Of a DNA stretch of 64,000 bases, positions 2,365 to 44,433 are shown one piece after another. The translations under genes and the position numbers were made by a program. Positions within the stretch are counted from its first letter, which is position 1. Every line of letters begins with the position of its first letter. The notes below the pieces were generated by a model. It worked only from the letters and a program-made list of their open reading frames with translations. It made no database searches and was not told the origin of the DNA. This DNA comes from Faecalibacterium sp. CAG:74 (GTDB lineage: Bacteria; Spirochaetota; Spirochaetia; Sphaerochaetales; Sphaerochaetaceae): the NCBI GenBank assembly GCA_963638045.1, contig CAVHPV010000002.1, positions 8 through 64,007 of the forward strand, written 5' to 3'.

Positions 2365-4626
2365 ATGATCACTTACAATGACGGCATATTCATCATAGAA
2401 ACAGAAAACACAAACTATATCTTCTCTGTTGAGAACACAGGCTTTCCGGAGCATATTTACTATGGACGCAAATTAAGGCTCCCCCTCTCTTCCCTGCTTG
2501 GAATGAGGGAGAAACATCTCAAGGCACCTCATATGGCAGCACGGTGCTCGAAGGAGTACAGCGAGTTCTCCCTCTCCGATACCCTTCTTGAATTCTCCAC
2601 GGAGGGAAAAGGTGACTACAGGGTTCCGCTCATAGCCGTCTCCCTCTCGGAAAAAGGAGACAGGACCCTTGAACTAAGATATGACTCCCATACAATAACA
2701 GACGGCATAGTGAGGCTGAAAGGCTTGAGGCTTCCACAGGCAATCGGCACAGAGAGCGAGGCAGAAACACTTGCAGTCACATATATCGATAAGAGTAGAA
2801 AGATAAAACTCATCACCTATTACACTTCGTTTTACAAGGCAGATGTCATAACAAGAAGGTCTGTCATAGTAAATGACTCCTCCTCCCCTATCAATGTAAG
2901 GTCTCTCCTCTCCTCTTCACTTGATTTGAGAGCAAGGGGCACCAGCATCACATCATTCTCCGGAAGATGGGGCAAAGAGAAAGGAATCAAAGAAAGAGTA
3001 ATGGATGAGGGAGAGATTGTAATCGAGTCGAGAACCATCCAGAGCGGAGAGACAGATTCCACAATAATTATAGAAAACGGGAAAGACACTTATCTATCCG
3101 GCCTTATCTACTCAGGTGCTTTCAGAACAACGGTAACGGAAAGTGCAAGCGGAATAACACACATAACAACAGGGATAAATCCCGACCTCTTCAGCTGGAA
3201 GCTGGACAGCAGTGAATACTTCGAGTCTCCTGAGGCTGTCCTTGCCTACTCGGATGGAGGAAGAAACAAGGTCGGCAATCTCATGAAGAAGTTCATCGAG
3301 AACCACGTCAGACGAGGACTCTGGAAGAACAGAATGAAGCCGATTATGCTCGATACATGGTCTTCTCTTTCATATGACCCGGACGAGAGAGATGTGCTGA
3401 AGATGGCAAAGGAAGCTGAGGAGCTCGGCTTCGAGGGGATTGTCGTATCGGACGGCTGGTTCGGGGCAAGAAGGAATAACTCATCTTCTCTTGGAGACTG
3501 GTATGCTGATACCAAGCACTTTCCTTCCGGCATCAAGAGTCTCTCTAATGAGATACACTATATGGGGCTTCTCTTCGGACTGTGGTTCGAGATGGAGGGA
3601 ATAAGCGAGCGTAGCATGCTCTATAAGTCCCATCCCGATTGGATAGTAGGAAGAAGTGCAGAAGAAAGCGTGAAGGCTAACAATGAGCTGCTTCTGGACT
3701 TATCACGCGAGGATGTGCAGGAGTGGGTAATCGACACAATGACGAAGATAATCGACTCCTATAAGCTTGATTACATCCGCTGGAGTCTATCACGCTTCCA
3801 GGGTGACCTCTGGTCAAACAGCGGAGAGAGAGACAGCTCGGAATTCATGCACCGCTATCTCGCAGGGCTCTATCATATCCTCGATGCAATAACAAAGACT
3901 TACCCGAACATATATATAGAGGGAACCAGTGCGGGAGGCATGAGGTTCGACATGGGCATGCTCTCTTATATGCCGAGCATCGTCACAAGCGAGAATCCCG
4001 ATTCTCTCGGAAAACTCAAGATAACAGAGGGAACAGGGATGATTTATCCCCTTTCCGTTATGACAAACATCATTACCAAGACGGGGCTCTATCCAGCACG
4101 GAAGATAGACGAGGAGACACAGTTCAATGCCTTTTCATTCGGAGTTCTGGATTATTCCATTAATCCGATGGAACTTTCGGCCCGTGACAAGATAAGGCTT
4201 GTGCAACAGCTCGATTTTTACAAAGGCTACAGACCTCTCTTCCAATACGGCACATTCACTCTTCAGGAAGAGAATGAGGAACGCACTCTCTGGACAGTCT
4301 CCAATGGAGACAGCTCTACAGTAATCATGCTCTACTACCTCAAGAAGGCAGAAATCAACACAAGTGCGGAGAAGCTCTATGTGGAGTGTGCCAACGAAAA
4401 CTATGACTACTCCTTCATAGCACGCACCCACATACAAAGTGAAGTCGAGGATGAACTTCATCCACAGGAGATGGAGTGCTACAACAGTGCAGGTGATGTC
4501 CTGAAGTGGGCAGGCCTCACCCTTGTCGAGAATTCAAGCGGTAACGGCTGGGAAGACGGGATGAGGGCACTCAGGGACAACACTTCACGCCTTTACATAA
4601 TAAAGAAAACAGAGGAAAGAAAGTGA
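2365..4626 (+). CDS. Alpha-galactosidase, glycoside hydrolase family 36
   Basis: 753 aa. KLDYIRWSL (nucleophile region, K-x-D-x-x-x-W) and EGTSAGGMRFDMG (GGxRFD acid/base region). The size and N-terminal beta-sandwich pattern are typical of AgaA/RafA-type GH36 enzymes. Confidence 0.8.
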   Translation: MITYNDGIFIIETENTNYIFSVENTGFPEHIYYGRKLRLPLSSLLGMREKHLKAPHMAARCSKEYSEFSLSDTLLEFSTEGKGDYRVPLIAVSLSEKGDRTLELRYDSHTITDGIVRLKGLRLPQAIGTESEAETLAVTYIDKSRKIKLITYYTSFYKADVITRRSVIVNDSSSPINVRSLLSSSLDLRARGTSITSFSGRWGKEKGIKERVMDEGEIVIESRTIQSGETDSTIIIENGKDTYLSGLIYSGAFRTTVTESASGITHITTGINPDLFSWKLDSSEYFESPEAVLAYSDGGRNKVGNLMKKFIENHVRRGLWKNRMKPIMLDTWSSLSYDPDERDVLKMAKEAEELGFEGIVVSDGWFGARRNNSSSLGDWYADTKHFPSGIKSLSNEIHYMGLLFGLWFEMEGISERSMLYKSHPDWIVGRSAEESVKANNELLLDLSREDVQEWVIDTMTKIIDSYKLDYIRWSLSRFQGDLWSNSGERDSSEFMHRYLAGLYHILDAITKTYPNIYIEGTSAGGMRFDMGMLSYMPSIVTSENPDSLGKLKITEGTGMIYPLSVMTNIITKTGLYPARKIDEETQFNAFSFGVLDYSINPMELSARDKIRLVQQLDFYKGYRPLFQYGTFTLQEENEERTLWTVSNGDSSTVIMLYYLKKAEINTSAEKLYVECANENYDYSFIARTHIQSEVEDELHPQEMECYNSAGDVLKWAGLTLVENSSGNGWEDGMRALRDNTSRLYIIKKTEERK

Positions 4627-40770: not shown

Positions 40771-40860
40771 CTATCCATAGAGAGTACGTGAGGGACAAGC
40801 CCGGTGACCGTACAGCAACCTGTAGAAAAATAAGGTGCTAAAGCTTGAACGATGGGTTGT
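40771..40860 (+). promoter_or_regulatory. SAM-I-clan (S-box) riboswitch aptamer upstream of metK
   Basis: ATCCAT-AGAGAG-TACGTGAGGGACAAGCCCGGTGACCGTACAGCAACC-TGTAG...AAGGTGCTAA...GATGGGT. The P1, P2 (GTACG/CGTAC) and P3 (ACCT/AGGT) pairings and the conserved GAGGGA, GCCC, GCAACC and GGTGCTAA blocks are present. Confidence 0.75.
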
Positions 40861-42052: not shown

Positions 42053-42127
42053 GAAAAAAATCTCAAACTAGGTCATTATCTGACCTAGTACACTCTCTAT
42101 ACTGGTTCTGTCATAAGGAGACAAAAG

Positions 42128-42448
42128 ATGACTTATTCAGAGACAAGAGAGATGTACACATCCTTCTATGCGGAGAGCAGAAGGGAAAGAGAGAAAAGAA
42201 CCGGATTGCTGTTAAACGCTTTTAAACTCCTTTATTCATGTTTTCTGCCATGGCTTATAACTTCACTATGCATTGTGAGAGTACATAACCTCCACAATGC
42301 AAAGGGCTTTCTTCTTTCTTTCGTTATACTCGGCCTTTCCCTTCCCTTCTACTCAAGTGCATCCAATAGTGACAGGACATACTTCCTCTCCTGTACCATC
42401 CTTTCATACCTTATTGCACTTTCATCAGTCCTCACTGTTCTTATGTAG
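42128..42448 (+). CDS. Small hydrophobic membrane protein (106 aa), copy 1
   Basis: SD AAGGAG 7 nt upstream, about 3 TM segments, followed by a terminator hairpin. Duplicated identically at 44070-44390. Confidence 0.5.
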   Translation: MTYSETREMYTSFYAESRREREKRTGLLLNAFKLLYSCFLPWLITSLCIVRVHNLHNAKGFLLSFVILGLSLPFYSSASNSDRTYFLSCTILSYLIALSSVLTVLM

Positions 42449-42469
42449 GACTCACCCAACACCCCTTAT

Positions 42470-42491
42470 GCCGGGCTCATAACCCGGCTTT
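42470..42491 (+). terminator. Hairpin terminator at the end of repeat copy 1
   Basis: GCCGGG-ctcataa-CCCGGC followed by TTT. It overlaps the last codons and the stop of the minus-strand antitoxin gene. Confidence 0.5.
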
Positions 42492-43487
42492 ATTATGCAC
42501 CGTTGAGTAAAGATCACTCGAGTAGAGAAAAATATCATCCGGGGTTTTCATCCCGTATTTTTCCTTTATAGCTAGAAAGAAATCACCTATTGCTTTTCTG
42601 TCTATCACCTTATCTGAATGAGAATCTTCTTCTGTCTCGCCTCTAGTCTCAATCCAGGGAGTCTCACTGTGGGTGAAGGCTTCAAGTATCTTTCCGCTGT
42701 AGCAGCATATATTATTGATGACACTGTCTATCACAGCCTTCTCTTCTCTGGAGAATACGGGAAGAGGAGATTTGGAGTTATCAGAAATTGGATTGAAATG
42801 ATAATCTGCATACTTCTTATAGACATTGCGGTAGACAGGGCCGTGTGCCCAAGCTTCACAGTCCTCTTCGAAAATGAACTTTGAATAGAATGCATAGAAA
42901 AATCCCTGGATGTAATAAAGCGCTTTCTGAAGTGCCAGTGGAGTTATATCCTCACATCTGTCGATAAGATAGACAATCACAGAAGAGATCGCCTCGCTGC
43001 ATTCTACCTCATTACTCCCAAGCAAAACCTCTGCCGCCATCCGGCTCTTAGCATAGCTTTTCTTTGAGATTTTTTCTCTCCCGGCCTCCAGCAGATTAAG
43101 ATAATATCCCGGGTCCTCATAGAGATTTTCCAGGGTCTGAGAGTATTGCCTTGTCGGGATATCACCATCAAGATAACGCTCAAGCGTATGTTCACCCCAC
43201 CCAAGAAGCACGGAGAGAGGCCTCTTACCGATCTTATATCTTTCAGGGAGAGTACGGACTTTCTCCAGCGATATTATTCCATTTTCGCTTCTATATTTAT
43301 CATAGAGTGCCGTCAGGTTACACTCCCCGATCTCCCAGACATCGAGATTTCCCCCGCATTCTGCGCACCTTACCTCTTTTCCTTTATATTTGTAGACAGT
43401 GCCGCGTATTGTCCCTGTCATCTCCTTCTCTTCAATTATATAATCGACATCCTTCCTGCAATTGACACAGAAAACCTTGTCAGTCAT
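42477..43487 (-). CDS. Fusion antitoxin: MqsA-like zinc ribbon + HTH fused to a Panacea (DUF4065/SocA-like) domain
   Basis: CVNCRK...CAECGG zinc ribbon, an HTH-like region (ISLEKVRTLPERYKIGKRPLSVLLGWGEHTLERYLDG), then ITPLALQKALYYIQGFFYAFYSKFIFEEDCEAWAHGPVYRNVYKKY, typical of DUF4065. Start at MTDKVF, overlapping the toxin stop by 8 nt. Confidence 0.65.
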   Translation of the reverse strand: MTDKVFCVNCRKDVDYIIEEKEMTGTIRGTVYKYKGKEVRCAECGGNLDVWEIGECNLTALYDKYRSENGIISLEKVRTLPERYKIGKRPLSVLLGWGEHTLERYLDGDIPTRQYSQTLENLYEDPGYYLNLLEAGREKISKKSYAKSRMAAEVLLGSNEVECSEAISSVIVYLIDRCEDITPLALQKALYYIQGFFYAFYSKFIFEEDCEAWAHGPVYRNVYKKYADYHFNPISDNSKSPLPVFSREEKAVIDSVINNICCYSGKILEAFTHSETPWIETRGETEEDSHSDKVIDRKAIGDFFLAIKEKYGMKTPDDIFLYSSDLYSTVHNKAGL

Positions 43488-43926
43488 GCTTTTTCTCCTT
43501 TCTAAACAGATATTCAACGGGTCTATTTAATTTATGTAGTGAAATCACAACGGTCCAGTCGCCATCCTCTCTCTTGATCAAATTGAACTTTGTATAAACA
43601 TCGACGCTTTCTTTTTCTCCAACAGCATTATAGAGGACAACACGGGGAACAAATACATAAAGAACTTCGTCCTCATATCCTTTCTTCATATTCCTGAGAG
43701 TGTGGCAGAAATCATCAACGGTGATTTCCAAGAGGAGCCTCTTCCTCTTTTTATGATAAAGATTGTACTCATTTATGAAAGATATATTCTCCTGTCTGTT
43801 CTCGTTCATTGAAACCTGGAATCTGTCATTTTCCACGCACTCCTTAATTCTGGACAGCACAGCGTCTATCTCGCTCTTTGTGTAATCCCTCTTATAATAC
43901 TGATTCGACATACCCCTCCCCAACAT
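43480..43926 (-). CDS. MqsR-like (RelE/YoeB-superfamily) toxin candidate
   Basis: 148 aa (143 aa if it starts at 43911). Hand alignment to E. coli MqsR: LEITVDDFCHTL versus GLSESDFYKSM, VDVYTKFNL...VVISLHK versus QVYLKITV...LIVSFKEK. Toxin-first order as in mqsRA. Confidence 0.5.
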   Translation of the reverse strand: MLGRGMSNQYYKRDYTKSEIDAVLSRIKECVENDRFQVSMNENRQENISFINEYNLYHKKRKRLLLEITVDDFCHTLRNMKKGYEDEVLYVFVPRVVLYNAVGEKESVDVYTKFNLIKREDGDWTVVISLHKLNRPVEYLFRKEKKHD

Positions 43927-43929
43927 CCT

Positions 43930-43949
43930 TATTGTCTATAGAGACAATA
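43930..43949. promoter_or_regulatory. 8-4-8 inverted repeat TATTGTCT-atag-AGACAATA, candidate TA operator
   Basis: Lies immediately upstream of the toxin start codon. The minus strand has TTGACA just upstream of it. Confidence 0.45.
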
Positions 43950-44008
43950 GAAAATGTCAATATATGTACTAATTGGTACATAATGAGGAAAATTTAAAAA
44001 TTTCCTTG

Positions 44009-44433
44009 ACTAGGTCATTATCTGACCTAGTGCACTCTCTATACTGGTTCTGTCATAAGGAGACAAAAGATGACTTATTCAGAGACAAGAGAGATGTACA
44101 CATCCTTCTATGCGGAGAGCAGAAGGGAAAGAGAGAAAAGAACCGGATTGCTGTTAAACGCTTTTAAACTCCTTTATTCATGTTTTCTGCCATGGCTTAT
44201 AACTTCACTATGCATTGTGAGAGTACATAACCTCCACAATGCAAAGGGCTTTCTTCTTTCTTTCGTTATACTCGGCCTTTCCCTTCCCTTCTACTCAAGT
44301 GCATCCAATAGTGACAGGACATACTTCCTCTCCTGTACCATCCTTTCATACCTTATTGCACTTTCATCAGTCCTCACTGTTCTTATGTAGGACTCACCCA
44401 ACACCCCTTATGCCGGGCTCATAACCCGGCTTT
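44009..44433. repeat. 425-bp direct repeat, right copy (partner 42067-42491)
   Basis: See the left copy. Confidence 0.95.
44070..44390 (+). CDS. Small hydrophobic membrane protein (106 aa), copy 2
   Basis: Identical translation to 42128-42448. This copy has an intact TTGAC upstream and a longer T-run after its terminator. Confidence 0.5.
   Translation: MTYSETREMYTSFYAESRREREKRTGLLLNAFKLLYSCFLPWLITSLCIVRVHNLHNAKGFLLSFVILGLSLPFYSSASNSDRTYFLSCTILSYLIALSSVLTVLM

Follow-up and report, generated by a model that had tools for sequence, protein, structure and literature searches.

We analysed a 64,000-nucleotide stretch of DNA assigned to Faecalibacterium sp. CAG:74 (contig CAVHPV010000002.1, positions 8 to 64,007; hereafter the window), which carries on its minus strand a toxin gene at 43480..43911 followed by an antitoxin gene at 42477..43487. 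The pair very probably constitutes a type II toxin-antitoxin (TA) operon belonging to the published PanAT class: an MqsR-like ribonuclease (RNase) toxin (Kurata cluster T2, NetFlax node D2) is combined with a three-domain PanA antitoxin and neutralised by the zinc-binding domain (ZBD) of the latter. This architecture has already been catalogued and experimentally dissected in relatives, and the window adds one more, unremarkable copy of it.

Gene pair and candidate operator

The antitoxin open reading frame (ORF) encodes 336 aa from an ATG at 43487 and lies downstream of the toxin ORF, and thus both the size and the toxin-first order stated in the original prediction were recovered. The remaining small plus-strand ORFs in the region were set aside as spurious. 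The toxin had been described as a 148-aa protein, and such an ORF does exist from an ATG at 43926. Translation, however, probably begins at a second ATG at 43911, yielding 143 aa, because this position is preceded by a ribosome-binding site, GGGGAGGGG, and agrees with the N-terminus of all homologs; it is also the start called in public assemblies. At its other end, the toxin gene overlaps the start of the antitoxin gene by 8 nt (ATGACTGA), and a GGAG motif is located 8 nt 5' of the antitoxin ATG. The two genes are therefore probably translationally coupled, and both would be transcribed, toxin first, from a single promoter.

A scan of species-representative genomes recovered 189 stretches encoding a relative of the toxin, and the 80 best loci were retained. 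The fusion antitoxin directly follows the toxin in all but one of these (79/80), the exception being cut off by the end of the locus. The loci stem from Lachnospiraceae, Oscillospiraceae, Erysipelotrichaceae, Clostridium, Gardnerella, Bacteroidota and metagenome-assembled genomes (MAGs) of spirochaetes; together they cover Bacillota, Actinomycetota, Bacteroidota and Spirochaetota, and include MAGs as well as isolates. Homologous pairs are also present on megaplasmids of the Bacillus cereus group and on a Clostridium estertheticum plasmid. The closest toxin homologs from B. cereus-group plasmids are ~42% identical to the window protein, and the plasmid homologs are labelled 'hypothetical protein' in RefSeq. 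On one B. cereus plasmid (NZ_CP125990.1, locus L084), the homologous pair at 2459-3926 adjoins a gene for a Sau3AI-family restriction endonuclease. A search of a phage collection yielded no toxin homolog.

Upstream of the toxin gene, a promoter-like site on the minus strand (43931..43960) combines TTGACA and GACAAT across an 18-nt spacer, with 10 of 12 positions matching the consensus. An operator-like palindrome, TATGTAC-N6-GTACATA with the core GYAYYAATTRRTRC, is located 5 nt upstream of its -35 box (43963..43982, minus strand). Of 78 upstream regions taken from relatives, 76 contain this core with at most one mismatch, as against none of 315 control segments. The TTGACA box is kept in relatives, which usually carry the core 7-8 nt upstream of it. 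The core differs from the palindrome of the E. coli mqsRA promoter, ACCT-N-AGGT. Judged by its conservation, the GYAYYAATTRRTRC palindrome is the best candidate for the operator of the antitoxin's helix-turn-helix (HTH) domain, which is predicted to dimerise and to repress the operon, most likely from this position just upstream of the -35 box. A conserved candidate operator for the whole family is thus a by-product of the analysis.

Autoregulation had previously been linked to a different element, an 8-4-8 palindrome (TATTGTCT-ctat-AGACAATA) at 43930..43949 on the minus strand. This palindrome is indeed exact and located at the promoter, where it overlaps the spacer and the -10 box, but the conserved operator-like site is the one at 43963-43982. 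At the position of the 8-4-8 element, none of 77 related upstream regions contains a counterpart palindrome, and relatives have a GTATCAT/TATAAT -10 box where the window has the palindrome; a role as family operator is therefore ruled out. The 8-4-8 palindrome is identical in a sister assembly, which shows zero mismatches to the window between 43876 and 44165. By chance, such palindromes are expected at ~0.01-0.02 per 100-nt promoter region (estimated as 100 positions x 9 loop sizes x 4^-8). The element may represent a lineage-specific second site, or have arisen by chance.

Domain architecture of the antitoxin and the neutralising domain

The antitoxin is assembled from three parts, all encoded on the minus strand. 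At the N-terminus, residues ~5-47 (43347..43475) form a Zn ribbon, the ZBD, whose CxxC...CxxC cysteines (C7, C10, C41 and C44) are invariant across 25 homologs. It is followed by an XRE-like HTH at residues ~72-121 (43125..43274) and by a SocA-like Panacea domain (DUF4065) at residues 186-278 (42654..42932). The Panacea assignment is based on Pfam model PF13274 (SocA_Panacea), which matches with an E-value of 1.8e-19 and 71.2 bits, above its cut-off of 25.7, and is covered from position 1 to 112 of 113. The N-terminal part is recognised by the MqsA model TIGR03830 (CxxCG_CxxCG_HTH, NCBIfam) over residues 7-129 (model positions 1-123 of 127; E 6.6e-10), a match that includes the HTH. In addition, a profile of the 25 antitoxin homologs retrieved PDB chains of E. 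coli MqsA (3gn5 and 2kz8; E 1.9e-4, residues 21-121), and its comparison with MqsA by hhalign yielded 82%; in both the hmmsearch and the hhalign comparison, the HTH region pairs with the HTH half of the E. coli protein. These profile matches, together with the invariant cysteines, bear out the three-part reading of the original prediction.

Several observations argue for caution regarding the MqsA-type part and its function. The TIGR03830 match scores 38.9 bits, under the NCBI curated cut-off of 61.8, and many antitoxin homologs match PF15731 (MqsA_antitoxin) at 25-27 bits, likewise under the curated cut-off of 30. When the antitoxin was compared directly with E. coli MqsA by BLASTP, no match appeared, the relationship being visible to profiles only. 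Furthermore, a PanA-MqsR pair from Herbaspirillum has been reported to be toxic, yet not neutralised, in E. coli (Kurata 2022, PMC8832971).

Among characterised systems, E. coli MqsR/MqsA (PDB 3HI2 and 3GN5; PMC2791442) shares the toxin-first gene order and the same arrangement of Zn ribbon and HTH, whereas the window antitoxin carries an additional Panacea domain of ~160 residues. By their published description, the MqsR(D2):PanA systems of Bacillus fungorum and Lactobacillus rossiae are close counterparts: they are likewise toxin-first, with an MqsR-like toxin and an antitoxin of ZBD, HTH and C-terminal Panacea, annotated as 'Panacea; ZBD (MqsA); HTH', and growth inhibition by the toxin as well as its neutralisation through direct binding of PanA were demonstrated for both (Ernits 2023, PMC10440598). 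The PanA described by Ernits is 349 aa in length (ZBD-HTH 1-174, Panacea 175-349), compared to 336 aa here, with the Pfam match to Panacea at 186-278.

The original prediction had treated it as an open question which of the domains neutralises the toxin; for the homologous B. fungorum system, the answer had already been published. In this sole dissected ZBD-HTH-Panacea antitoxin, the ZBD or the ZBD-HTH fragment neutralises MqsR, while Panacea or HTH-Panacea does not (PMC10440598). By analogy with these truncations, the four-cysteine Zn ribbon of the window antitoxin would bind and neutralise its toxin. It is highly unlikely that Panacea assumes this task instead, leaving the MqsA-like part for DNA binding only: direct neutralisation by Panacea is known from single-domain, stand-alone PanAs, such as the B. 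choladocola system (PMC10440598), and conservation of the Panacea region in the antitoxin family equals or exceeds that of the ZBD, but the B. fungorum truncations point the other way and all four Zn ligands are invariant in the family of the window antitoxin. With the ZBD as the neutralising domain, Panacea might serve as an accessory module, possibly sensing a trigger, in line with the sensor function proposed for this domain (Ernits 2023, PMC10440598).

The same domain also connects the antitoxin to a more distant system. Caulobacter SocA/SocB is a type VI TA system, and SocA is the founding Panacea protein. The NCBIfam model for SocA, NF047745, matches the window antitoxin with an E-value of 6.9e-11, its 42 bits lying far below the equivalog cut-off of 190. 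SocB blocks replication and SocA functions as a proteolytic adaptor, whereas the partner protein in the window appears MqsR-like.

The toxin as a divergent relative of MqsR

To place the toxin, a full-library HMM search was used to collect 578 relatives, and 76 diverse full-length sequences were aligned (alignment A3). The Pfam model MqsR_toxin (PF15723) independently matches 27 of these 76 proteins, with a best E-value of 3.5e-6. When the alignment was compared by hhalign with one of 25 bona fide MqsR proteins of the E. coli MqsR family (A5), the two families matched with 95.5% probability (E 1.4e-8) over MqsR residues 9-98. The MqsR motifs that had originally been noted by eye (DF..,.Y.K and V.S.) fall into the very columns paired in this comparison, and the proposal of an MqsR-like toxin thereby gains support at the level of families. 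Of the profiles named in the original prediction, those for MqsA and DUF4065 match the antitoxin itself, whereas on the toxin side PF15723 matches relatives and not the window protein.

Seven residues are invariant family-wide in the toxin, namely R39, N42, F87, Y106, K108, S124 and H126. In the hhalign columns, MqsR K83 is matched by K108, a lysine found in 76 of 76 relatives and invariant in both families, MqsR S94 pairs with S124, and MqsR Y81 corresponds to Y106, present in 73 of 76. Y81 is one of the four residues, K56, Q68, Y81 and K96, associated with MqsR toxicity (Brown 2009, PMC2791442), and substitution of Y97 detoxifies the MqsR of B. fungorum (PMC10440598).

A structure model of the toxin agrees with this relationship in the order of its elements, but not in its Foldseek matches. 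The first AlphaFold2 (AF2) model, built from 21 close homologs, reached a predicted local distance difference test score (pLDDT) of 71.6 and yielded meaningless Foldseek matches; a second one, based on a deep alignment, reached 94.7. Its elements (H12-27, E31-33, H40-48, H53-61, E68-73, E83-87, E90-94, E100-113 and E119-127) follow the order of the MqsR fold, a six-stranded sheet with three helices arranged as b-a-b-a-a-b-b-b-b (Brown 2009, PMC2791442), plus one extra strand. The window toxin exceeds E. coli MqsR in length by 45 residues; it is extended at the N-terminus and has an additional hairpin between beta4 and beta5. The best match of the model in BFVD, and its sole significant structural match, is a 124-aa phage protein (A0A8S5T535; E 2e-5, TM-score 0.54-0.61) annotated as 'HTH-type transcriptional regulator', which is uninformative on function; this protein may be a mis-named MqsR-like toxin. 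Matches to NTF2-like proteins in the PDB, with TM-scores of 0.3-0.4 and root-mean-square deviations of 7-12 Å, were treated as noise.

Other results speak against kinship with MqsR. Searches of the Pfam, NCBIfam and PADLOC libraries with the toxin protein returned noise only, without a PF15723 or NCBIfam match at E<=1, and PDB sequences searched with toxin profiles from both the shallow (A2) and the deep (A3) alignment did not retrieve MqsR. Likewise, none of 502 toxin homologs carries a Pfam domain, and a six-frame search of the source genome with PF15723 found nothing. In the Foldseek search of the PDB with the model of pLDDT 94.7, neither MqsR nor RelE was among the top 50 matches listed. 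At the active site, the toxin family does not keep all four MqsR toxicity residues: K96 is replaced by a histidine in 75 of 76 relatives (H126 of the window toxin), the K56 column varies among Y, H and K (H in this toxin), and Q68 falls into an alignment gap.

We read the toxin as a remote MqsR homolog, unrecognised by the Pfam model, with a partly rebuilt active site. Judged by homology, it would act as a divergent endoribonuclease of the MqsR/RelE superfamily that halts growth via RNA cleavage. That the 143-aa protein instead adopts another fold or mechanism, its match to MqsR reflecting shared secondary-structure periodicity only, is very unlikely: the missing direct library match, the NTF2-like noise in Foldseek and the change of two of four toxicity residues speak for it, but the profile-profile match extends across nearly the whole of MqsR, 27 relatives match PF15723 independently, an invariant tyrosine and lysine occupy the Y81 and K83 columns, the partner antitoxin is MqsA-type with the genes in toxin-first order, and FlaGs clustering places orthologs in T2 together with MqsR proteins recognised by CDD (Kurata 2022, PMC8832971).

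Among the PanT partners that can be recognised, MqsR-like toxins occur most often (n=90), and an HTH is found in 343 PanAs (Kurata 2022, PMC8832971). Dataset S1 of that study lists pairs of a T2 (MqsR) toxin and an HTH-PanA from Gardnerella vaginalis NCTC10287 and Anaerovorax odorimutans DSM 5092. Our locus L041 comes from the same Anaerovorax strain and has the same order of toxin and antitoxin and the same 26-nt spacer as the published entry, and the family is therefore already part of the catalogue. The Anaerovorax toxin is 57% identical to the window toxin; it is named 'hypothetical protein' in the Kurata table and placed in T2. For the T2 entries, the N-terminal part of the antitoxin is labelled 'HTH' only, and pairs from these species were untested in that paper. 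With architecture and neutralising domain already published, the significance of the window locus beyond annotation is small. What the profile-profile match adds is that the widespread 'hypothetical' proteins of 136-143 aa encoded beside ZBD-HTH-Panacea antitoxins appear to be MqsR-related, a relationship for which Foldseek returned no MqsR.

Flanking repeats and genomic context

The TA genes lie within a 1,517-bp cassette (42492-44008) between two 425-bp direct repeats at 42067..42491 and 44009..44433, both on the plus strand, which differ at a single position (42090 A in the left and 44032 G in the right copy). Each repeat contains a complete gene for a hydrophobic, presumably small membrane, protein of 106 aa with a good ribosome-binding site; in the left copy, which also holds a hairpin, this gene is located at 42128-42448 and its product has three transmembrane-like segments. 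In sister species of the genus, the 106-aa gene is kept, between metK and a gene for an M18 aminopeptidase, and we therefore consider it a real gene. One of these genomes (G016, locus L088) has the aminopeptidase gene directly after the 106-aa gene and represents the empty site, while another (G015, locus L087) carries an MntA (nucleotidyltransferase)/HepT pair at this position. Therefore, the site downstream of the 106-aa gene is a TA hotspot in the genus, and the window illustrates a minimal TA cassette occupying a hotspot where a sister species carries another TA pair.

The left repeat also reaches into the antitoxin gene, supplying its last four codons (KAGL) and stop (42477-42491), which lie inside the hairpin of the repeat. 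The C-terminus of the antitoxin extends six residues past the end of most family members, and its original stop codon was apparently lost at the junction of the insertion.

The order repeat-cassette-repeat recurs, at 99.3% identity, in an independent NCBI assembly (L094). Both strains show the A/G difference between the repeat copies, while eight single-nucleotide polymorphisms (SNPs) between the strains are identical in both copies, a pattern that fits gene conversion or, alternatively, consensus collapse by assemblers. An assembler could also have threaded together an empty chromosomal site and a 1.9-kb circle, or a mixture of strains, in which case repeats and cassette would not share one molecule. 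We consider this unlikely. In its favour, the source genome is a MAG with 140 contigs and 77% completeness, the 425-bp repeat is not phaseable by short reads, and in two further samples unitigs (99.9% and 94.5% identical) break off exactly at the edges of the repeats; against it, the independent assembly is collinear and reproduces the difference between the copies. In any case, such an artefact would bear on the context only and not on the identity of the TA pair.

A further-reaching scenario joins these features, and we put it forward tentatively, as a rather doubtful extension of the MqsR relationship. The large, unannotated toxin sub-family might derive from MqsR and have a remodelled active site, in which the invariant histidine in place of K96, plus R39 and N42, would support His-dependent RNA cleavage similar to YoeB or RNase Sa, with a specificity unlike that of the GCU-specific MqsR. 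Such a toxin would be governed by the GYAYYAATTRRTRC family operator and a Panacea sensor, and in this genus recombination between the 425-bp repeats could carry the minimal 1.5-kb cassette into and out of a TA hotspot.

Two elements in the neighbourhood complete the description. The first 23 nt of each repeat (42067-42089 and 44009-44031) form a 9-5-9 palindrome, ACTAGGTCA-N5-TGACCTAGT, which directly follows the metK stop codon in the left copy and, in the right copy, precedes the toxin start by ~100 nt. Upstream of metK, at 40772-40858, lies a SAM-I riboswitch (RF00162, 55.1 bits).

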